DNA of 64,000 nt from a bacterium (GTDB lineage Bacteria; Actinomycetota; Acidimicrobiia; Spongiisociales; Spongiisociaceae): the NCBI GenBank assembly GCA_028821265.1, contig JAPPGU010000002.1:904-64903 (forward strand), written 5' to 3'. The stretch's first letter is position 1, and every line of letters starts with the position of its first letter. Shown here piece after piece: positions 13,426 through 57,385 of this stretch. Under the pieces are notes generated by a model, which did not search any database, was not told the origin of the DNA, and saw only the letters and a program-made list of their open reading frames with translations. The position numbers and the translations under genes are program-made.

Positions 13426-13568
13426 GGTATGCCCGATCTCGGGCATGACTGACCCGACCGCCATGATCGGGAGCCGGTCGAGATACCGGTAATAAGACGT
13501 ATCGGCGTGTGGCGAGCGAAGAGTGGGGGCTCCCGGCGGTGCCCTGGACTCTCATCGAAAGGAGTGCG

Positions 13569-16500
13569 ATGATGGCGGGACGGGGAGATGGACTTCGGAT
13601 GCAGCGCCTGTTCACGACCGAAGGCCGCGACCCGTACGAGGGAATCGCCTGGACCCGCCGCGAGTCACGGATCGTCAATCCGGACGGCTCCGTGGTCTTC
13701 GAGATGGATGACGCCGAGGTTCCCACCACCTGGTCGCAGGTGGCCACCGACATCATCGTCTCGAAGTACTTCCGCAAGGCCGGTGTGCCCCGGATGGACG
13801 CTGATGGCGACCCGATGCTGGATTCCGACGGCAATCCGGTGCTGGGGTCGGAGCGCTCTGCCAGGGATGTCTTCAACCGGCTTGCCGAGACCTGGCGGCA
13901 CTGGGGTGAGGGTTACGGCTACTTCGGCAGCGCCGCCGAAGCCCAGACCTTCGAGGACGAGATCAAGTACATGCTCGCCAACCAGATGGCGGCTCCCAAC
14001 AGCCCGCAGTGGTTCAACACCGGCTTGTCGCATAAGTACGGCATCACGGGTACGCCGCAAGGGTTCTGGTACGTAGACGAGGAGACCGGCGAGGTACTCC
14101 CCTCCCCCGACGCCTACTCCAGGCCGGCTCCCCATGCCTGCTTCATCCAGTCGGTGGCCGACGACCTCGTCAACGAGGGCGGGATCATGGACCTGTGGGT
14201 CCGGGAAGCCCGTCTCTTCAAGATGGGATCCGGCACCGGCTCCAACTTCTCCAACCTCCGGGCCGAGGGCGAGCCGCTGGCGGGCGGAGGGAAGAGCTCG
14301 GGGCTCATGTCGTTCCTCAAGATCGGAGACCGGGCGGCGGGTGCGATCAAGTCCGGCGGCACCACCCGGCGGGCCGCCAAGATGGTCATCCTCGACACCG
14401 ATCACCCCGACATCGAGGAGTTCATCGCCTGGAAGCGCGACGAGGAAATGAAAGCCCGCCTCCTGATCGAGCACGGCGGGTTCCAGGCCGACTTCAACGG
14501 TGAGGCCTACATGACCGTGTCGGGCCAGAACTCCAACAACTCGGTACGGGTTGACGACCGCTTCATCAAGGCCGTCGCCGACGATGGGGATTGGGAACTG
14601 GTCAACCGGGTGGAGGGTGACGTCAGCAAGACGGTACGCGCCAGAGACCTGTGGGAGCAGATCGCGGACGCCGCCTGGGCCTGTGCCGATCCGGGCGTCC
14701 AGTACCACACCTCCATCAACGAGTGGCACACGTGCCCGGCGGACGGTGAGATCCGGGCGTCCAACCCCTGTTCGGAATACATGTTCCTGGACGACACGGC
14801 TTGCAACCTGGCCAGCATCAACCTCGGCGCCTTCCTCGATGACGCAACCGGCCGGTTCGACACCGCCGGTTACCTCCACGCCATCCGGCTGTGGACGATC
14901 GTCCTGGAGATCTCGGTGACGATGGCGCACTTCCCGTCCAAGGCCATCGCCCAGGGCTCCTATGACTTCCGCACCCTCGGCCTCGGTTACGCCAACCTCG
15001 GCAGCCTCCTGATGCGCTCGGGGATCCCCTACGACTCGGACGAGGGCCGGGCGATCGCCGGCGCGCTGACCGCCATCCTCACCGGTGAGGCCTACGCCAC
15101 CTCCGCCGACATGGCCAAGATGCGGGGCCCCTTCCCCGGGTTCGAGAAGAACCGCGCACACATGTTGCGGGTGATGCGGAACCACCGTCGGGCCGCCTAC
15201 GACGAGAGGGGCTTCGAGGGTGTCGGCACCACGGTCAGCACCATCGACCCGGCATACTGCCCTGCCGAGCTGCTGGACGCGGCCCGGCAGGCCTGGGACC
15301 GTGCCCTGGAGATGGGAGAACAGCACGGTTACCGCAACGCTCAGGCAAGCGTGCTCGCTCCGACCGGATGCCTGGTCGGTGGATCCCTCATCCCGACCGA
15401 GCGAGGACTGGTCCGGCTCCGGTCGCTCGGCGACCCCGAAGGCCCGAGGTGGCAGGAACTGGGCATCTCGGTAGCAACTGACGAGGGACCCCGCACCGCG
15501 ACCCGTTTCTACGTCAACGGGGCAGAACCCGTGGTGACCGTGGACACGGAGCGCGGATACCGCGTCCAGGGAACTCCCACCCACCGCATCAAAGTCGTCG
15601 ACCCGCAGACCGGTGACTGGGTATGGAAACGCTTCGGAGACGTGGAGGCCGGCGATCTCGTACCCCTGCAGATGAACCAGTTGGTCGGAGGTCCCCGCCG
15701 GGTGACCCTCCCGCCCTTGGGAGAGATGTACTGGACCGGTGACTGGACCACCACGGCGCCGAGGACCATGAGCCCGGAACTGGCCGAGTTCGTCGGGTAC
15801 TTCATGGGGGACGGTTCCCTCCACGCCAAAGGTCTGAGGTTGTGCGTCACGGCTGAAGACTTCGACGTGGTGGAACGTCTTCGAATGCTCGGGAAGCGGC
15901 TCTTCAACCTAGAAGCCCACGTCGGCGAAAGGGTCGGCTACGCCGAGGTCGCGTTCCACTCTGTCCCGCTGACCATGTGGTGGGAAGCCTGCGGATTCGC
16001 CAAGATCGCGCCCTCCGAAGGCCATGCCGGCAAGGGCTGGCTGCCTCACATCCCGGACGCGGTACTCGCTTCCAACTGCCCGGAAACCTATCGCGCCTTC
16101 ATCAGGGGCCTGTTCGAAGCCGATGGAACCGTCACGGCAGGCTATCCGCATTGGTCCACGACCTCGATGGACTTCAGCCGCGATGTCCAGTCGCTGCTGC
16201 TGGCGATCGGTTACCCGACAACCCGCAAGATGGATCGGACCGGTTGGAGTGATGCTCCCCTCGCCGTGCTGCGCATCCTCAACCTCTCCTACGCCACCGG
16301 GTTTGCCGAAGAGATCGGTTTCATGAGCGGCCGCAAGCAAGGTGCCCTGGCCTCGACCACCATCCCGCAGTCGGCCCGCTGTGACCACATTCCGGTGCCC
16401 CGCTCCCTCATCGACCGGCTCGTGCCCGAGAACGGCCGCTTGCGGCGCATCATGCTGGCATCGCAGGCCAGGATCGGCATGGTGTCACGCCGATCGGCCC

Positions 16501-18269
16501 TGGAACTCCTCGAACGCACCGATGACCGTGAACTGGCCCGGCTGCTCGACCACTACTACGACCGGGTCGGCAGCGCGGAACTGGGCGAGGAGCAGTGGAC
16601 CTACGACCTGTCCGTCCCCGACAACGTCACCTACGTGGCCAACGGCTTCGTGTCGCACAACACCATCGGGTTGGTGATGGATTGCGACACCACCGGGGTG
16701 GAGCCCGACTTCGCCCTGGTCAAGTTCAAGAAGCTGGCCGGCGGGGGCTACTTCAAGATCGCCAACCAGTCCATCGCCCCGTCGCTGCGGCGGCTCGGCT
16801 ATGACAAGCACCAGATCCTCGACATCCTGGCCTACGTGGTAGGCACCTCATCGCTCGAGAACGCTCCGCACATCAACCACCGGAGCCTGGCGGCGAAGGG
16901 CTTCACGGCCGAGGACCTGGCCAGGATCGGGAAGGCCCTTCCCGGCGCATTCGAACTGGAGAACGCCTTCAACGCCTTCACGCTGGGCGCCGACACCTTG
17001 GAACGGCTCGGCTTCACCGAGGAGGAGTACGGAACCTTCGAGTTCAGGCTGCTGCCGGCGCTCGGCTTCAGCAGGGAACAGATACGTGCCGCCAACGACT
17101 TCATCTGCGGCCGCCAGACCATCGAGGGAGCACCGCACCTGCGTGCCGAACACCTGGCGGTGTTCGACTGCGCCAACCGCAACGGCAAGTACGGAGAGCG
17201 GTTCATCCACCACACGGGCCACATCAAGATGATGGCCGCCGCCCAGCCGTTCATCTCGGGGGCCATCTCCAAGACGATCAACATGCCCAACGAGGTCACC
17301 GTCGAGGATGTGGCGGATGCCTACATGATGTCCTGGGATTTGGGCGTCAAGGCAGTGGCCCTCTACCGCGACGGCTCCAAGGCCTCGCAGCCGCTGTCCG
17401 CCTCCTCGGACGACGGGGTGTCGGAGGAGGAGAGCGAGGAAGTCACCGAAGCGCTGCAGGCCGAGGCCGCCCTGGCGTGGGGAGTCTGGCCCAACGGCAC
17501 CTCACCCACCCAGGCCTACGCCCAGCAACCACGTCCCCGCTTCCTGCTACCGGCCCGCCGGACGGGGTGGACCCAGGAGGCTCGGGTCGGTGGCCACAAG
17601 GTGTTCCTCCGCACCGGGGAGTACGACGACGGAACGCTCGGTGAGATATTCATCGACCTGGCGAAGGAGGGCGCCACGCTCCGGGGTGTGCTGGCCAGCT
17701 TTGCCATAGCGGTTAGCAAGGGCCTCCAGTACGGCGTGCCGCTGGAGGAGTACGTGGACACGTTCGTGTACCAGACCTTCGAGCCCCGCGGCATCGTGGA
17801 GAAGCATCCCAACATCAAGATGGCCAATTCGATCGTGGACTACGTGTTCCGGGCGCTCGGGGTCGAGTACCTGCTTCGGGACGAGCTCGCCCAGGTCCCC
17901 CCGGACCGGTCGAGCAGCGACCTGCCCGAGCCCCCGAAGGGAATCGCCACCGAGGCCGGCCGCCAGATGGAGCTGTCGGAGGCGGTCAAGGAACAGGACA
18001 TCGAGGCGCAGGCCACCGCCGCGGCGTTCGCGGACTCCGATCAGCCCGGCCCCGTCCAGCAGCCGCTCAGCTTGGTGCCGGTGGGTACCGGCAACGGATC
18101 GGGCGTGGCAGTCGGGCTGGCTGACGAAACCGCCCTCGCGAGTGCGGGCCCGATGATCGGAGGCCTGATGGGAGACGCCCCGATGTGCTCCTCATGCGGC
18201 CACATGACCATCCGTAACGGCGCCTGCTACGTCTGCCTGACCTGCGGAGACACCACCGGCTGCAGTTAG
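13569..18269 (+). CDS. nrdJ: class II (adenosylcobalamin-dependent) ribonucleotide reductase NrdJ, interrupted by an intein
   Basis: Family motifs are present ([59 protein letters not shown]) plus a C-terminal CxxC...CxxC tail. An RBS GAAAGGAG precedes the ATG ATG at 13569. Confidence 0.9.
   Translation: [1566 protein letters not shown]
15369..16661 (+). mobile_element. 431-aa intein with a LAGLIDADG homing-endonuclease domain
   Basis: It begins CLVGGSLIP directly after extein APTG. It has block B GTPTHRI and two LAGLIDADG motifs ([26 protein letters not shown]). It ends VSHN followed by extein Thr (TIGLVMDCD). Confidence 0.85.
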
Positions 18270-31886: not shown

Positions 31887-32339
31887 TCAATCCCTGTAGA
31901 CAGCGACCCACTTGATTATCTCTTCCACGTCGGCGGAAAGCTCCATCAAACCTACGTGCTCATCGTAGAGATCGCCGTCCATCTGCTCCTTGATCTCCGG
32001 CTCCAATACGTGATATACGGGAAGTCCCAACGGGACTCCGGCCAACGGACCCGCCCAGGTCGGATCGCCTCTGGTCACCGTCTCCGCGAAGAGACCGGCG
32101 CTGTTGGCATCCGGCTGCCCCAGCAGGACGACCATGCCGTCCGTGCCGGAGGTCTCGGCCAGGCGATTTACGTTCGCCTGGTCCTCCAGGTCCATCGCTC
32201 CCCCAGCCGTTCAGACGAAGCACTGGGTGACGCTGAACACCACATCGGCGCCGGCCGACTCGGCCAGGAGCTTGAGGCTGGGCCCGGTGACGCCGTCGCG
32301 CTCACCGATGGCCACCACCCTCCTGCCGTTCAGATCCAT
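31887..32339 (-). CDS. grdA: glycine/sarcosine/betaine reductase complex selenoprotein A, with in-frame UGA (Sec43)
   Basis: The minus-strand frame reads, after GAGGAG, an ATG at 32339 and then MDLNGRRVVAIGERDGVTGPSLKLLAESAGADVVFSVTQCFV-TGA(32213..32211)-TAGGAMDLEDQ... to the stop at 31887. The CFVU motif and both halves match GrdA. The track lists only the part after the UGA. Confidence 0.85.
32159..32181 (-). promoter_or_regulatory. candidate SECIS-type hairpin downstream of the grdA UGA
   Basis: On the mRNA, CCAGGCGA-ACGUAAA-UCGCCUGG forms a perfect 8-bp stem at +30 to +52 after the UGA. An alternative is CCUGG-AGGA-CCAGG at +21 to +34. Confidence 0.35.
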
Positions 32340-32496
32340 ACCCGCTCCTCTCGCTTCTTTCATTACGTCGGACTTCGGCCGCCGGGGGTCACGCTTTCGT
32401 TGACGACGTGATGGCGGGCCGTCGAGAGTCTATCGCCCGGCCTATCCACCACAGGAATGGCAGATTCGTGGCCGGCTCGGCTGACCTACAGCCTTG

Positions 32497-34014
32497 CTAC
32501 CCCGTGCGGCGCGCCACGGCCGGCCGCTCGACGATGAAGGAAACCCCGTCGACCAACTGTGTCATCCTGCCCAGGAACAGGCTCCCCTTGGCGACGATCA
32601 TGGCTCGGTCGAGGCTGCCGCGGCGCATGGCTTCCAGGGCGTGTCCCAGGTAGGGAACCCCGGCCGGGATGTGTCCCTGGGTCGGAGCGAACCCGGGCAT
32701 GCCGCGCTCGGCCACGAAGCGGTCGATGTCTCCCCTCCCGATCTCTCGCCGTAGCACCGCCATCGCCGCCAGCGTCCGGTAGTTCATTCTGGGCACGTCG
32801 CCGCTCCCGCCGGGCTCGGTGATCTCCGGATTGTGCATCTCCACCGCGTACTTGTCGATGTCGGTCATGCCGAGACCGGCCCTCACGAGCGGTTCCACCA
32901 CCAGCGCCTCGTACACCGCCTTCGGAGAGGAACCGGCCCCGATCGGATGCTTCCCGGCGAGGTCGAGCCGCAGCTCCATGCCGTGGCCGCCGGCGGGACC
33001 GACCAGGAATGCCATGGAAGCCAGGCAGTCCTCCATCACCGGCACCCCGTTGCGCAGGTGAGCGCCGAACTTCATGCCTAGCTTGGCCTGCGATCCGCCG
33101 CCCAACACGACCACGTACTTGTGAACACCCGCCGCCACCATCGCGCCGGCCGCGATCAGCGCGTGCACCGGCGCGGAGCAGAACGCCTTGATGTCCGATC
33201 CGGTGGCGTTCACGCAGCCGACCACCTCGCCGACCGCTTTCGACAGGCTGCCCCCGCCCCGCTGGTATCGGTCCCCGACCGCTTCCTCCCCACAGTTGAG
33301 CAGGTAGTCGATCTCACCTGCCCCGATGCCGCTGTTCCTGAGAAGATCGGAGAACGCCAGGACTGCGGTCGCCTTGCCGGCCAGGTTCTCGAGCAGCACA
33401 GAGGCGGTGAGCGCCTCGTCCTGGTCGTGAACAGTGCGGATGAACCCGGCCATGCGCCCGTCGTGGTGGAGGTCGAGTCCGGCACTCTCCTCCGCCAGAG
33501 TCCGCAACTCGGCCGGGTCGACACCCGTAATCCGCCCCCTCCGATGATCGAAGTCGACCAGATCGAAGCCGGCCTGCTCGGCCAGTTCCCCATCGATGGC
33601 CAGCAGGTCGAAGTCGTCGCACAGCTTCATGAGCCCGTACAGGGCAGGCTGGCTGACCATGCGCCCGAAGGCGCCGGAGGGACTTGCCGAGTCGATCCTG
33701 TTCTCGTACCAGGGACGGGGGATGGACGCCAGGTCCTCCGGTGCGAGATTCCCGATGAACACCTGGTTCGGCGGGTAGGCGACCACTTCGTCCCAGGGGC
33801 GAAGGGATCCGGCAATCCGGGGCAGCAGTGACGGGTCCCTGCCGATCTCACGTACCGGCTTCGACCCGTACCTGACCAGATCGGGAGCGTGAGAAAGGGC
33901 GTAGGAAGCGCTGAGGATGGCGGGTGTCGGGCTCAACGGAATGGTCTCCAGGTTGGCTGCTCGGCGATTGCTCGGCCGAAGCAGGGTAACCGTAGCCTGA
34001 CCGAGCCCGGCCAT
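32497..34014 (-). CDS. grdC: glycine/sarcosine/betaine reductase component C beta-subunit-like protein (thiolase-fold)
   Basis: The motifs ASYALSHAPDLV, YPPNQVFIGNL...PRPWYENR, GDRYQRGGGSLSKAVGEVVGCVNATGSDIKAFCSAPVHAL and PGFAPTQGHIPAGVPYLGHA...GSLFLGRMT resemble GrdC as I recall it. A TTG at 33936, preceded by GGAG, is an alternative start. Confidence 0.6.
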   Translation of the reverse strand: MAGLGQATVTLLRPSNRRAANLETIPLSPTPAILSASYALSHAPDLVRYGSKPVREIGRDPSLLPRIAGSLRPWDEVVAYPPNQVFIGNLAPEDLASIPRPWYENRIDSASPSGAFGRMVSQPALYGLMKLCDDFDLLAIDGELAEQAGFDLVDFDHRRGRITGVDPAELRTLAEESAGLDLHHDGRMAGFIRTVHDQDEALTASVLLENLAGKATAVLAFSDLLRNSGIGAGEIDYLLNCGEEAVGDRYQRGGGSLSKAVGEVVGCVNATGSDIKAFCSAPVHALIAAGAMVAAGVHKYVVVLGGGSQAKLGMKFGAHLRNGVPVMEDCLASMAFLVGPAGGHGMELRLDLAGKHPIGAGSSPKAVYEALVVEPLVRAGLGMTDIDKYAVEMHNPEITEPGGSGDVPRMNYRTLAAMAVLRREIGRGDIDRFVAERGMPGFAPTQGHIPAGVPYLGHALEAMRRGSLDRAMIVAKGSLFLGRMTQLVDGVSFIVERPAVARRTG

Positions 34015-34030
34015 CGGGAGAGCAGGAGCG

Positions 34031-35053
34031 GTGGGTATTCTCTCCTCGCCCTGGACAGGAGCGTTCCAGGCCCGTTCACCATGGAGAAGACCCCCCTTGG
34101 CCCGCCGTTACCCGACCACAGCGCTGAGCGGAGAGGGTCTTGGTATCCCGTTCCTGGCCATGGCCACCAGCATCCTCATCATGAGCACCGGCCTGGTGGC
34201 GATCAAGGCAACCAGCCTCGGCGGGCTCGAGTTCTCCTTCTGGCGTCTATGGATCGGCGTGGCGGCGCTGGGCCCCGTGGTCATCTGGAGGCTCGCCGCC
34301 AAGCCCGAGGCGCGCCCGTCGCTCTCCTCGCTGCGCCGGGCCATCCTGCCGGGTCTCCTGATCGCGTTCATCCAGCCGGCCCTGGTCGTCGCAGCCAAGC
34401 TCACCTCGGTCACGGATGTAGCGCTGCTGACCTCGGTGATCCCCCTGATCGTAAGCGTGATCGCCGTTCCGATCCTGGGCGAACGCCCCGGCGCCCGCTT
34501 CCGGCTGTGGGTGGTGGTGGCGATCAGCGGCGCCGGCTTGGTGGCCTACGGAGGATCCACCGGCCTCGAGGGCGACCTGCTCGGGATGGCCCTGGCATGT
34601 GCCGGAGTGGTGTGCTGGGCGTTCTACATGGTCATCCTGAAGATCTCCAGGGTCTACCTGGATGCCATCGTGCTGCTCTGGGCCATCTTGGTGGTCGCAG
34701 CGATCGGCGTGACCGGGTTCATGGCGCTCACCGGCTGGGAGCCGGGCTCGGTGACCACCGGGGACTGGCTGCTGATCACCTACGTAGCGGTGATACCCGG
34801 AGGGGTCGGTCTGGCGCTGATGACCTGGGCCTACCGCTGGCTGCCCGCCAACATCCCACCCCTCATGCAAAGTGCCAAACCGGTCCTGTCCAGCGCCCAG
34901 GCCTACGCGCTCCTGTCCGAGCCCGTTACCGCTCTGCACTTCGTGGGCGGCGGCATCGCAATCGCCGGAGTGGTTGGAGCGATCCTGGATCGAACCGGCC
35001 GGCGCCTTCTGGCCGAAGCGCAGAGCAAGGCCGACCCCAGCCAGATCTCATGA
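34031..35053 (+). CDS. EamA/DMT-family transporter
   Basis: About 10 hydrophobic helices in two EamA-like halves. The start is uncertain (GTG 34031 or ATG 34160). Confidence 0.8.
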   Translation: MGILSSPWTGAFQARSPWRRPPLARRYPTTALSGEGLGIPFLAMATSILIMSTGLVAIKATSLGGLEFSFWRLWIGVAALGPVVIWRLAAKPEARPSLSSLRRAILPGLLIAFIQPALVVAAKLTSVTDVALLTSVIPLIVSVIAVPILGERPGARFRLWVVVAISGAGLVAYGGSTGLEGDLLGMALACAGVVCWAFYMVILKISRVYLDAIVLLWAILVVAAIGVTGFMALTGWEPGSVTTGDWLLITYVAVIPGGVGLALMTWAYRWLPANIPPLMQSAKPVLSSAQAYALLSEPVTALHFVGGGIAIAGVVGAILDRTGRRLLAEAQSKADPSQIS

Positions 35054-38977: not shown

Positions 38978-39044
38978 TCACTCCCTTCCCGGTAGCGTCG
39001 GGCGGCATTGTATATGATCCGAATCGGCGCGAAGGAGGTGACCA

Positions 39045-39437
39045 CTGGGGATCGAAGCCGTCGAAGTAGAGGCCTTGAGCGATCCTCCTGAGCCCTATTC
39101 CCACGCCATCCGGGCCGGTAACACCATCTACCTGGCCGGTCAGGTGGCCTTCGACCGGGACGGCGAGATCGTGGGGGACACCGTGGAACAGCAGGCCAGG
39201 CAGGTGTGGCGGAACATCGAGGACGTGCTGGCGGCGGCGGGTAGCTCGGTCGCCGACGTGGTCAAGGTCACCTACATCATGCAGGACATCCGGGAGATTT
39301 CCGAGGAGTTCCCCGTCCGTGAGGAGGTGTTCGCCGGGAGGCCGTTTCCGGCGGTGACCGCGATGCAGGCGGCGGCACTGGGACTGCCCGGCCTCAAGAT
39401 GGAGGTGGATGTGATCGCGGTGGTGCCAGGTGGCTGA
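39045..39437 (+). CDS. ridA: RidA/YjgF family deaminase
   Basis: PEPYSHAIRAGNTIYLAGQVA... and a C-terminal EVDVIAV. GAAGGAGG precedes a CTG at 39045, and the track start is a TTG at 39075. The start is uncertain. Confidence 0.8.
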   Translation: MGIEAVEVEALSDPPEPYSHAIRAGNTIYLAGQVAFDRDGEIVGDTVEQQARQVWRNIEDVLAAAGSSVADVVKVTYIMQDIREISEEFPVREEVFAGRPFPAVTAMQAAALGLPGLKMEVDVIAVVPGG

Positions 39438-39627
39438 CCCGATCCCCGAGGCCGTTTCCGAAGCCCTATCCCGGCACGGCTTGACCGGACCGGCGTTCGA
39501 CGCGGTGGCGATCGCCGAGGCGCTGGCCGGTTGGGACGAAGCAGGAGGGATCCTGGACCGGCTGCTGTCAAGGCACGAGGCGGACGCCCCCGCTGCCAAC
39601 CCGACCTCCTTCTCCCCGAAGTGGTGA
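39430..39627 (+). CDS. 65-aa acidic helical protein, candidate GatC/AtzG-like amidase partner
   Basis: Its GTG overlaps the ridA stop (GTGGCTGA), and its stop overlaps the amidase GTG start (GTGGTGA). The C-terminal EADAPAANPTSF recalls the DUF4089/AtzG-like tail. Confidence 0.4.
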   Translation: MADPIPEAVSEALSRHGLTGPAFDAVAIAEALAGWDEAGGILDRLLSRHEADAPAANPTSFSPKW

Positions 39628-41036
39628 CGGGACCCGTGAGCGCCCGCTCCATAGCAAGCATCGCCCGCCAACTCCGTGAGGGCGCCACCACTTCCGTGGC
39701 GGTCACCCGGCGCGCGCTCGATGGCATCGATCAGACCGACACCCGGCTCAACGCCTTCGCTCTCGTGGACCGGGAGGGAGCGATGCGAGCTGCCGAGCAG
39801 GCCGACCGGGTCCTGGACTCGGGAGAGGGGGCCGGGCCGCTGACCGGAGTCCCGGTCGCCATCAAGGACATCATCCACATGACGGGCCTTCCCACCCGAT
39901 GCGGATCGCCCGCCTATCCCGACACGCCCCGCGACCACGACGCAGCCGTCGTCGGCAGGCTGCGCGAGGCGGGCGCGGTGATGGTCGGCAAGACGACCAC
40001 CCATGAGTTGGCCTGCGGCGTCTCCAGCCCTCCGGCCGCCAATCCATGGGACACTGCCCGCCTGCCGGGCGGGTCCAGCGGTGGATCCGGCGCGGCCGTG
40101 GCCGCCGGAGTGGTGCCGATGGCGCTCGGGAGCGACACGGGCGGATCGATCAGGATTCCCGCGTCGGTCTGCGGGATCGCCGGCCTCAAGCCGACCTTCG
40201 GGAGGGTGTCCCGCGCCGGAGTCGAGACCCTGGCCTGGTCCCTGGACCACATCGGACCGCTGGCCGCCACCGTGGAGGACTGCGCCGCCACGCTCCAGAT
40301 CCTGGCGGGCCACGATCCGGCCGATCCTCCGACCGAGCCCACTCCCCCACCCGACTACTCCGCGGAGCTGGGCCGTGGGGTGGACGGGCTGCGGCTCGGC
40401 ATCATGGCGACGCCGCCCTTCTCCCCGATGCAGGAAGACGTGGAGCGGGCGTTCCGCGATGCGGTCGAGCACCTGGAAGGGCTCGGGGCCGACGTGGTTC
40501 CCGTCGACATCCCGGAACTGGTCTTCACCCTTGACACCGAGTTCTCCATCGTCGGACCCGAGGCCGCCGCCTACCACCGTCGGCTGCTCCGGGAGTCGCC
40601 GGAATTGATCTCTCCGGACATCCGCGAGCTGTTCACCATCGGCACGATCCTGCCGTCGACCCACTACCTCAGGGGCCTCGGCGCCCGCCGGGTCATCCGT
40701 GAAGCCCTGCGGCGGGCGTTCGACCGGGACCGGCTGGACGCAGCGATAACCCCCACCCTGCCCGCTACGGCCGCCCTTGCAGACCAGGAGATGATCGACT
40801 ACGGGGAGATGGAGGAGGGCGTGATCACTTCCTACGTGCGTACGACCGCCCCCTTCAACCTGAGCGGCCAGCCTGCGCTCACCGTCCCGTGCGGGTTCGA
40901 TCGGGACGGCCTACCGATCGGCCTCCAGATCGCCGGGCGTCCTTTCGATGAGGTCACGGTCCTCCGGATCGGCGCCGCCTACGAGGCGACCACGACCTGG
41001 TCGGACCACCGGCCGCCGGTCCGGGTAGACGGCTAG
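39621..41036 (+). CDS. amidase-signature family amidase (GatA/AtzE-like)
   Basis: GGSSGGSGAAVAAG and GSDTGGSIRIPA signature sequences, with a Ser-cisSer-Lys context. Confidence 0.85.
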   Translation: MVTGPVSARSIASIARQLREGATTSVAVTRRALDGIDQTDTRLNAFALVDREGAMRAAEQADRVLDSGEGAGPLTGVPVAIKDIIHMTGLPTRCGSPAYPDTPRDHDAAVVGRLREAGAVMVGKTTTHELACGVSSPPAANPWDTARLPGGSSGGSGAAVAAGVVPMALGSDTGGSIRIPASVCGIAGLKPTFGRVSRAGVETLAWSLDHIGPLAATVEDCAATLQILAGHDPADPPTEPTPPPDYSAELGRGVDGLRLGIMATPPFSPMQEDVERAFRDAVEHLEGLGADVVPVDIPELVFTLDTEFSIVGPEAAAYHRRLLRESPELISPDIRELFTIGTILPSTHYLRGLGARRVIREALRRAFDRDRLDAAITPTLPATAALADQEMIDYGEMEEGVITSYVRTTAPFNLSGQPALTVPCGFDRDGLPIGLQIAGRPFDEVTVLRIGAAYEATTTWSDHRPPVRVDG

Positions 41037-55028: not shown

Positions 55029-55366
55029 GATCTACCTCCCAACGCCCCTCACTGTGTGAGCGCCGTTCACCGCTGTTCGCAACAGCTCGTTCCCTTTAGA
55101 CGCCGGATCGACCGGGTTTGGTTCCACCCCCTGAGCCAATCGTTCGCGGCGGGGCCCAACGGTCATGGTCGCCGCCTAAACGTCTGGTAAGCAGGGCTAT
55201 TCACCGGAACTGGACGGCTGGACGAATACGGTGGTGATCTTCACGAGCGACACGGCGACACGCTGAGCGTCGCATCCGGCCCATTTGCGGATCTTCCCGA
55301 TGAGATCGGACAGCCTGAGGCGCCTCACCGTCGGCTAGTTTGGACGATCGTCAGCGGGGGTTCTGG

Positions 55367-57385
55367 ATGAGCGACGAGACGATTAACAACCACGAGGCGT
55401 TTGTCTGGTCGGTGGCCGACCTGTTGCGGGGTGTGTACAAACAGTCGGAGTACGGGCGGGTGATCCTTCCGCTCACGGTGCTCCGTCGGCTGGATTGCGT
55501 GCTGGAACCCACCAAGGACAAGGTGCTGGAGCGGGCGGCCAAGCTTCCGACTGACCTGGAGAACCGGGCGCCGATACTGATGCACGCGGCTGGGGAGTCG
55601 TTCTACAACACGTCGAAGCACACGTTCAAGACGTTGCTGGCCGATCCCGACAACGTGGCCCCGAACCTGCGCAACTACATCGCCGGGTTCTCCGAGTCGG
55701 CCCGGGACATCATCGACAAGTTCAACTTCGACACCCAGATCGACCGGTTGGACCAGCACAACCTGCTGTACCTGGTGGTGTCCCGCTTCGCCGACCTCGA
55801 TATGCGCCCGGAGGTGGTGTCGAACCTGGAGATGGGTTACATCTACGAGGAGTTGATCCGCCGCTTCTCGGAGTTGTCCAACGAGACGGCGGGTGAGCAC
55901 TTCACCCCCCGCGAGGTGATCCGCCTCATGGTGAACCTGCTCCTCGCGGACGATGACCAGTTGCTGACGGCACCGGGGATCGTCAAGACCATGCTGGACC
56001 CGGCCTGCGGCACGGGCGGAATGCTGTCCGTGTCGGAGGAGTACCTGCGCAATCTCAACCCCCAGGGCCGCCTTCACGTCTACGGCCAGGAGGTGAACGC
56101 TGAGACCTATGCCACGTGCCGGTCGGACATGCTGATCAAGGGCCTGGACGCGTCGCGGATCCGGTTCGGGAACAGCTTTGACAACGACCAACACCCCAGC
56201 CGCCGCTTCGACTACCTGCTGGCCAATCCCCCGTTCGGTGTGGAGTGGAAGATGGTCGCCAACCACATCAGAGGCGAGCACAAGACGAAGGGCTTCGCGG
56301 GTCGGTTCGGCGCCGGCCTGCCACGGATCAACGACGGCAGCTTCCTGTTCCTCCAGCACATGATCTCCAAGATGAAACGCCCCGAAGAAGGCGGCGCCCG
56401 CCTGGCGATCGTGTTCAACGGCTCCCCACTCTTCACGGGAGCGGCCGGGTCGGGCGAGTCCGAGATCCGGCGGTGGATCATCGAGAACGACTGGCTCGAA
56501 GCCGTGGTCGCCCTCCCCGACCAGCTGTTCTACAACACCGGGATCTCCACCTACTTCTGGGTAGTCACCAACCGCAAGTCCCCCAAGCGCCGCGGCAAGG
56601 TCCAGTTGATCGACGCCCGCGAGTCTTGGACCAAGATGCGCAAGAGCCTCGGCAACAAACGCAAGCAGATCAGCGACGACCAGATTGACGAGCTCACCCG
56701 TCTCTACGGCGCCTTCGAGGAAGGCCCCCGCTCCAAGATCTTCCCCAACGAGAGCTTCGGCTTTCTCCGGATCACCGTCGAACGCCCCCTCCGCCTCCGC
56801 TGGGAGATCACCCAAGACACCCTCGCCGCCGTCGCCGCCGACAAGAAAGTCACCAAACTCCTGTCCACGAGGAAGGACCTTCTGCTGGAGAAGCTCCGAC
56901 CCACTCACGGCGCCACCTACCCGACCGAAAAGGATGCGAAGGCAGCCGTCCGCGACGCGCTCGTGTCAGTCATCGGAGAGAAACCCACTCCCGTGGTCAA
57001 CGCCATCGCCACCGCACTCGCGGTGCGAGACCCTCAGGCGCCGGTCATCACCGACCGCAAGGGCAACCCCAAACCCGACCCCACCCTCCGCGACTACGAA
57101 AACGTCCCCCTACCCACCAAACGCGTCACCCACGAAACCGACACCACCAGACGGCTCAACACCACCGAGTACCAGACCGCCATCAACGACTACCTCGAAA
57201 CCGACGTCCACCCCTACGTCCCCGACGCCTGGCACGACCCCACCAAGACCAAGATCGGCTACGAAATCCCCCTCACCCGCCACTTCTACACCTACACCCC
57301 GCCCCGCCCCCTCCAAGACATCGACAAGGAAATCAAGACCCTCGAATCCGAGATCCAAGCCCTCCTCGCCGAGGTGACGAATTGA
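55367..57385 (+). CDS. hsdM: type I restriction-modification system methyltransferase subunit
   Basis: HsdM N-terminal pattern (FVWSVADLLRG...YGRVILPLTVLRRLD), SAM motif DPACGTGGML, and catalytic LLANPPFGVEW. Confidence 0.9.
   Translation: MSDETINNHEAFVWSVADLLRGVYKQSEYGRVILPLTVLRRLDCVLEPTKDKVLERAAKLPTDLENRAPILMHAAGESFYNTSKHTFKTLLADPDNVAPNLRNYIAGFSESARDIIDKFNFDTQIDRLDQHNLLYLVVSRFADLDMRPEVVSNLEMGYIYEELIRRFSELSNETAGEHFTPREVIRLMVNLLLADDDQLLTAPGIVKTMLDPACGTGGMLSVSEEYLRNLNPQGRLHVYGQEVNAETYATCRSDMLIKGLDASRIRFGNSFDNDQHPSRRFDYLLANPPFGVEWKMVANHIRGEHKTKGFAGRFGAGLPRINDGSFLFLQHMISKMKRPEEGGARLAIVFNGSPLFTGAAGSGESEIRRWIIENDWLEAVVALPDQLFYNTGISTYFWVVTNRKSPKRRGKVQLIDARESWTKMRKSLGNKRKQISDDQIDELTRLYGAFEEGPRSKIFPNESFGFLRITVERPLRLRWEITQDTLAAVAADKKVTKLLSTRKDLLLEKLRPTHGATYPTEKDAKAAVRDALVSVIGEKPTPVVNAIATALAVRDPQAPVITDRKGNPKPDPTLRDYENVPLPTKRVTHETDTTRRLNTTEYQTAINDYLETDVHPYVPDAWHDPTKTKIGYEIPLTRHFYTYTPPRPLQDIDKEIKTLESEIQALLAEVTN

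Follow-up and report, generated by a model that had tools for sequence, protein, structure and literature searches.

A probable UGA-containing grdA gene, adjacent to grdC, in a sponge-associated lineage of the Acidimicrobiia

The 64-kb stretch of bacterial DNA analysed here (the window) carries on its minus strand what is in all probability (about 0.92) a genuine grdA gene, encoding the selenocysteine (Sec)-containing protein A of the glycine/sarcosine/betaine reductase family. The gene is apparently co-transcribed with grdC and would belong to a split system in sponge-associated Acidimicrobiia. The observations behind this reading are a 150-codon frame with a UGA inside a CxxU motif, two halves that are both members of the family, an intact grdC next to the gene, and a UGA and reading frame that are kept across ~85 genomes (Table 1). 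Judged by its sequence, the window gene is a member of a long-known selenoprotein family and is recognised at once by curated models. The family, the motif and the mechanism have all long been known, and GrdB of this lineage is already annotated as a selenoprotein in public records.

Table 1. Features of the grdC-grdA region, in window coordinates
Feature	Position	Strand	Details
grdA coding sequence	31887..32339	-	150 codons plus stop TGA (31889..31887); selenoprotein A of a glycine/sarcosine/betaine-type reductase (probable)
In-frame UGA, codon 43	32211..32213	-	predicted Sec of the Cys40-Phe-Val-Sec43 (CxxU) redox motif
Shine-Dalgarno-like GAGGAG	32345..32350	-	spacer CGGGT (5 nt), then ATG 32339..32337; read from the sequence
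SECIS-like stem-loop just 3' of the UGA	32156..32209	-	MFE -33.8 kcal/mol; z = -2.56 against dinucleotide shuffles
Apical hairpin CCUGG-AGGA-CCAGG	32190..32177	-	starts 20 nt past the UGA
grdC (component C, beta subunit)	32497..34014	-	157 nt upstream of grdA; NF040746 589.6 bits (cut-off 450); Pfam DUF5940 and ACP_syn_III

Because Sec is encoded by a UGA “stop” codon, gene finders split grdA in two, and the ORF list of the window holds only the 102-aa piece at 31887..32195 for this gene. A preliminary description had proposed that the full frame was hidden from the ORF track, with a GAGGAG, 5 nt and an ATG at 32339 leading into a TGA at 32213..32211, and this arrangement is confirmed in the sequence. 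Starting from that ATG, the frame reads MDLNGRRVVAIGERDGVTGPSLKLLAESAGADVVFSVTQCFV, then the TGA, then TAGGAMDLEDQ and onward to its terminal stop. The predicted product of 150 aa, with Sec at residue 43 in a C-F-V-U motif, holds as well: frame and motif are as described, and the homologous codon is TGA wherever it was compared (see below). Another ATG occurs 15 nt past the in-frame TGA. When every TGA in the window was scanned, only the one in grdA had, in frame, GC1/GC2/GC3 values of the coding type both before and after it. As an ordinary stop codon, TGA is used more often in the window than any other, closing 22 of the 43 confident ORFs, which argues that the codon is not reassigned here. 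One other in-frame TGA, in 39042..41036 (plus strand), was considered as a second selenoprotein and rejected, since the frame consists of a RidA ORF followed by an amidase ORF, and these are called separately in public contigs. A scan of the window for promoters and terminators gave nothing useful.

GrdA is the carrier that takes up a carboxymethyl group rather than the substrate-binding subunit. With Cys in place of Sec, the read-through product aligns with the Pfam model GRDA (PF04723) over positions 1-147 of 147 (E 1.6e-58; 197.1 bits, cut-off 22) and with the NCBIfam equivalog NF040748 (“complex selenoprotein A”) over 1-148 of 151 (199.9 bits, cut-off 130). The alignment to the family model that had been recommended as a check therefore gives a full-length match above both cut-offs. 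Since the profiles are matched over their full length, the 42 residues before the UGA are also family members; they had been called GrdA-like from the sequence, and the N-terminal part of the GRDA profile does cover them. GrdA proteins of Firmicutes (Ezakiella, Fenollaria) are 52-54% identical to that of the window and share with it a length of ~150 aa, the CFV-U motif, UGA-encoded Sec in the same alignment column, the blocks GERDG, AETV..GDP..AGPLAGV and EPE, and a hairpin 3' of the UGA, whereas the apical stem of that hairpin differs in sequence. No sequence relative of GrdA or GrdC was found in the PDB. The GrdB/PrdB selenoproteins (PF07355) and thioredoxin-type CxxC/CxxU proteins resemble GrdA in having a UGA-encoded redox Sec near a resolving Cys and are partners in the pathway (PMC2398784), but they belong to unrelated families and folds.

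A scan for homologues, taking one genome per species, gave 80 loci, to which six further metagenome loci, the window and their neighbours were added for the TGA count. In each of the 85 related loci, which represent five phyla, TGA stands at the homologous codon; the loci come from Acidimicrobiia, Chloroflexota, Rokubacteria/NC10, Deltaproteobacteria and cultured Firmicutes (including Ezakiella and Fenollaria, which have canonical grd operons). Among 15 Acidimicrobiia genes of equal length, variable sites at the three codon positions number 7/4/28 upstream of the TGA and 22/12/74 downstream. Synonymous and non-synonymous codon differences stand at 954:360 in the N-terminal part and 2608:892 in the C-terminal part. 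This bias of substitutions towards third positions, equal before and after the TGA, argues that the two halves are translated in one frame. The Met of “AMDLEDQ”, with which the 102-aa ORF would begin, is a conserved internal residue across GrdA homologues. The 102-aa fragment itself is identical on 20 independent metagenome contigs from several studies, each with a separately called 42-aa GRDA fragment before it and with the same synteny, and in two of the six loci shown from those contigs grdA is identical to that of the window over all 453 nt.

Protein databases give a distorted picture of this codon. Several “full-length” GrdA entries in a metagenome protein collection (P0042, P0045, P0048 and others) have Trp at the Sec position, which reflects gene callers that used a TGA=Trp code on short contigs. 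Most other GrdA entries in that collection are C-terminal fragments of 102-108 aa. A Cys version of GrdA was sought with a degenerate DNA pattern (QCFVC-TA[A/G]G) in 241 million metagenome records, and none of the four matches is GrdA. This agrees with published descriptions of GrdA as having a CxxU motif and no Cys homologues (PMC1794560; PMC2398784).

The sequence just 3' of the UGA folds into a SECIS-like element (Table 1). Of 76 distinct homologous sequences, most have a hairpin at the equivalent position, and its stems are specific to clades. For example, many Chloroflexota, deltaproteobacterial and Rokubacteria/NC10 loci have the hairpin CUUGACCU-GGA-AGGUCAAG, two loci (L072 and L086) carry a compensatory change of GAC/GUC to GGC/GCC that gives a GGCC/GGCC version, and the Ezakiella-type Firmicute loci have UUGG-AAAA-CCAA. 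Compared with synonymous-codon resampling (same peptide, window codon usage), the native fold gave p = 0.08 as a whole and p = 0.36 in its apical part, so RNA-level selection on the hairpin is inseparable from conservation of the AMDLEDQ peptide. The element is thus present and correctly placed, and its strength does not clearly exceed what the coding sequence by itself would produce. Rfam models applied to the window at gathering thresholds returned no SECIS, riboswitch or tRNA-Sec.

The nearest relatives of the window GrdA are in sponge-associated Acidimicrobiia MAGs (Ca. Spongiisocius / Spongiisociaceae), at 96-99% identity; the figure is 99% for WTGI01000091 and 96% for Ca. Spongiisocius sp. 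OZ241858.1. The window's GC content of 65-70% fits these relatives, and the earlier suggestion of a high-GC actinobacterium is borne out by them. No paper on grd genes in sponge Acidimicrobiia was found in the literature.

Does this organism use selenocysteine? The support for its probable use of UGA-43 as Sec is only indirect and comes from the Sec-containing grdB of sister genomes. In sister Spongiisociaceae genomes and in OZ219922.1, grdB likewise contains a TGA in frame, at the Sec site of its family (...ST-U-GTGTRC... in Spongiisociaceae), and NCBI names these proteins “selenoprotein B [Acidimicrobiia bacterium]”. The genes selA, selB and selD and a tRNA-Sec are absent from the 64-kb window and from ~35 Acidimicrobiia loci. 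ARAGORN reported no tRNA of any kind in the window and no tRNA-Sec in 56 loci; five further loci yielded one, in the Firmicute locus L057. Searching all loci by tblastn with E. coli SelA, SelB and SelD gave matches in two Firmicute loci only: in L057, selA, selB and selD adjoin the grd genes, as does the tRNA-Sec, and in L076 selD lies nearby. In another order of the Acidimicrobiia, the Actinomarinales, selA, selB, selC and selD have been described throughout (bioRxiv 10.64898/2026.04.03.716425, a 2026 preprint).

There are two ways in which the codon might be something other than Sec. The TGA could be a true stop, in which case grdA would be a broken gene or pseudogene, or translation would yield no more than the C-terminal 102 aa that begin with MDLEDQ. 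Gene callers give exactly such a split, an ATG is available 15 nt past the TGA, and the DNA examined (the window and the Acidimicrobiia loci) holds no Sec machinery. However, a true stop is very improbable when all 85 homologues have TGA at this codon, among them organisms with canonical, experimentally known operon types, and when the 42 upstream codons are under the same purifying selection as those downstream and align with the N-terminal region of the GRDA profile. The putative start Met is, moreover, a conserved internal residue, and the literature contains neither a Cys nor a truncated form of GrdA (PMC1794560). Alternatively, one of the standard amino acids Trp, Cys and Gly could be inserted at UGA-43, under an altered genetic code or by near-cognate suppression, without selenium. 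The database relatives with W at the site would fit such reading, as would the lack of Sec machinery in both the window and the Acidimicrobiia loci, but the W in those entries is an artefact of gene calling on short contigs, and TGA ends about half of the window's confident ORFs. The same TGA is also found in GrdA of Firmicutes that use code 11, with selA, selB, selD and tRNA-Sec beside the grd genes, and no Cys-encoded version was recovered by the pattern search. Readthrough with a standard amino acid is hardly credible on this evidence. Decoding of UGA-43 as Sec is therefore the preferred reading.

The gene directly upstream of grdA is grdC. Its start codon is uncertain, with public gene calls that give 479, 505 or 528 aa. 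The window GrdC keeps Cys279, His319, Asn411 and His448, four residues of catalytic type that do not vary among 73 GrdC sequences. The adjacency of grdC and grdA is kept in all non-Firmicute loci with a long enough flank, in some of them with trxA between the two, and grdA appears to be co-transcribed with grdC. The setting is unusual in that the rest of the known complex is not close by: the 64-kb window contains no GrdB, GrdE, GrdD, TrxA or TrxB. Divergently transcribed from grdC is a gene for an EamA-family transporter (34001..35053, plus strand), and EamA-family transporter genes recur beside grd genes in Spongiisociaceae (L015-L034).

Elsewhere in the window, a 1600-aa class II (B12-dependent) ribonucleotide reductase is encoded at 13467..18269 (plus strand) and is split by an intein with a LAGLIDADG homing-endonuclease domain. 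Between ~54000 and 62000, GC content falls from ~0.67 to 0.61-0.63; genes there encode an HsdM type I restriction-modification methylase (55319..57385), an HTH protein and an AAA_14/DUF4143 ATPase, and this region may be a genomic island.

How does the grdC-grdA pair compare with known grd operons? The Firmicute (Ezakiella) order is trxB-trxA-grdE-grdA-grdB-grdC-grdD, whereas the window has grdC-grdA only, with no grdB, grdE, trx or grdD nearby, and its host is a high-GC sponge-associated member of the Acidimicrobiia. A second parallel is provided by the clusters grdE-grdB-grdC-(trxA)-grdA in Chloroflexota, Rokubacteria/NC10, Deltaproteobacteria and other Acidimicrobiia MAGs. Like the window, these clusters have grdC followed by grdA, no grdD nearby and a TGA in grdA, with GrdA identities of 47-93%; grdB in them carries a TGA too. 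They differ from the window in mostly having grdE-grdB nearby, whereas the window and its nearest relatives (L001-L012, L016, L017, L025) have no grdE-grdB within 10 kb.

The lack of GrdD extends well beyond the window. At ~60 non-Firmicute loci whose flanks were long enough, neither tblastn (1e-8) nor a GrdD HMM (--max, E <= 10) detected a GrdD within 10 kb of grdA. This search covered L013-L056, L059, L061, L064-L067, L072, L078, L080, L082-L086, L089 and the window; GrdD may be encoded elsewhere in the genomes. In two Eubacteriales/Lachnospiraceae MAGs (L057 10583..13186 and L076 10609..13161), a single frame without interruption spans GrdC and GrdD, which may be fused. The first GrdD HMM was contaminated because of these single-frame ORFs; the rebuilt HMM found nothing outside Firmicutes. 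As for the thioredoxin system, TrxA and TrxB are absent from the Acidimicrobiia loci, and trxA between grdC and grdA is found only in some Chloroflexota and deltaproteobacterial MAGs.

In relatives of the window, protein B is apparently encoded elsewhere. Spongiisociaceae have three divergent types of protein B, none of which reaches the GrdB, GrdF or GrdH cut-offs; they reach only that of the generic model TIGR01918. A type-1 GrdB query had no match on contigs of the sizes of the relatives' chromosomes, and a profile of types 2 and 3 had matches on contigs of such sizes. For example, OZ219922.1 (1,655,116 bp), whose GrdA is 96% identical to that of the window, has a type-2 GrdB (P0279), encoded in a BKACE-grdE-grdB(TGA) arrangement ~85 kb from grdC-grdA. 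Likewise, a 3,282,395-bp contig has a window-type GrdA and a type-2 GrdB, and a 4,140,741-bp chromosome has both type 2 and type 3. The placing of grdEB and grdA on one record follows from equal sizes in bp among relatives and not from the window's own assembly. The BKACE-grdE-grdB module is also present in assemblies with accession numbers near those of some window-type contigs.

The type-2 GrdB of Spongiisociaceae (L019, L022, L089 10001..11320, L094-L098) keeps the Sec TGA and reads U-GTG-TRS, with both Cys of the classical UxxCxxC replaced. Its gene follows BKACE and grdE where upstream flanks were examined (L089, L094-L096, L098), and a GCV_T-family gene is near it where the downstream flank allows (L089, L094, L095, L097). 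A further recurring neighbour is an aldehyde dehydrogenase gene, which immediately follows grdA in 20 loci of Acidimicrobiia and Chloroflexota (L023-L047, L082; e.g. L024 10428..11945). Its product is closest to betaine-aldehyde dehydrogenase (BADH), below that model's cut-off, and the window lacks the gene. Betaine-type compounds can be named as a substrate from the BKACE and BADH-like neighbours, but this is only a guess.

These gene arrangements raise the possibility that grdC-grdA is the shared module of a non-canonical reductase that has no GrdD, serves unlinked and divergent protein-B pairs, and acts on substrates other than glycine, sarcosine and betaine. The absence of GrdD near grdA in the window, in L089 and in every non-Firmicute locus with adequate flanks is in keeping with such an enzyme, as are the three protein-B types below the cut-offs of the named families, the loss of both UxxCxxC cysteines from type 2, the chromosome with types 2 and 3 together, and the conserved BKACE, GCV_T, BADH-like ALDH and EamA neighbours. 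On the other hand, grdD, trxA and trxB may lie elsewhere in these genomes, and the scores of GrdA and GrdC exceed the curated cut-offs of the equivalog models of the canonical complex. On balance, a non-canonical reductase is a real possibility, but not a likely one. The broader version of this idea, in which a GrdD-less reductase uses one grdC-grdA module for several unlinked, divergent selenoprotein-B pairs in sponge Acidimicrobiia and more widely in the non-Firmicute clusters of Chloroflexota, Rokubacteria and Deltaproteobacteria, is speculative and rather unlikely. If it were true, one of the pairs served would be the type without the UxxCxxC cysteines, beside a BKACE gene; compounds from the host, different from the three known substrates, would be acted on, and acetyl release would be carried out by GrdC alone or by an unrelated enzyme.

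With grdA read as a selenoprotein gene of the known family, a mechanism can be proposed. From what is known of the family, SelB and Sec-tRNA would insert selenocysteine at UGA-43, with the stem-loop that starts a few nucleotides 3' of the codon as their guide. The amine would be cleaved by a protein B specific for the substrate, a pair of the GrdE/GrdB type that is itself a selenoprotein, and this pair would transfer a carboxymethyl group to Sec43. With GrdD as its usual partner, GrdC would then convert the Se-carboxymethyl ether to an enzyme-bound acetyl thioester and on to acetyl phosphate. The GrdC step would leave a Cys40-Sec43 selenosulfide, and a thioredoxin system would re-reduce this bond. 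In this lineage the system would be split, with grdC-grdA as in the window and grdE-grdB (type 2, by a BKACE gene) ~85 kb away in the closest closed chromosome.

What are the implications of these findings? One concerns annotation. Because gene callers stop at the Sec codon, and cut both grdA and grdB there, 42-aa and 102-aa fragments or “W” read-throughs fill protein databases in place of the 150-aa selenoprotein. The other concerns the organism. The Stickland-type reductive amine-cleaving system is better known from strict anaerobes. The evidence presented here indicates that a sponge-symbiont lineage of the Acidimicrobiia is a user of Sec and that it has parts of such a system, which might be relevant to the use of host osmolytes by symbionts during anoxia of the sponge tissue.
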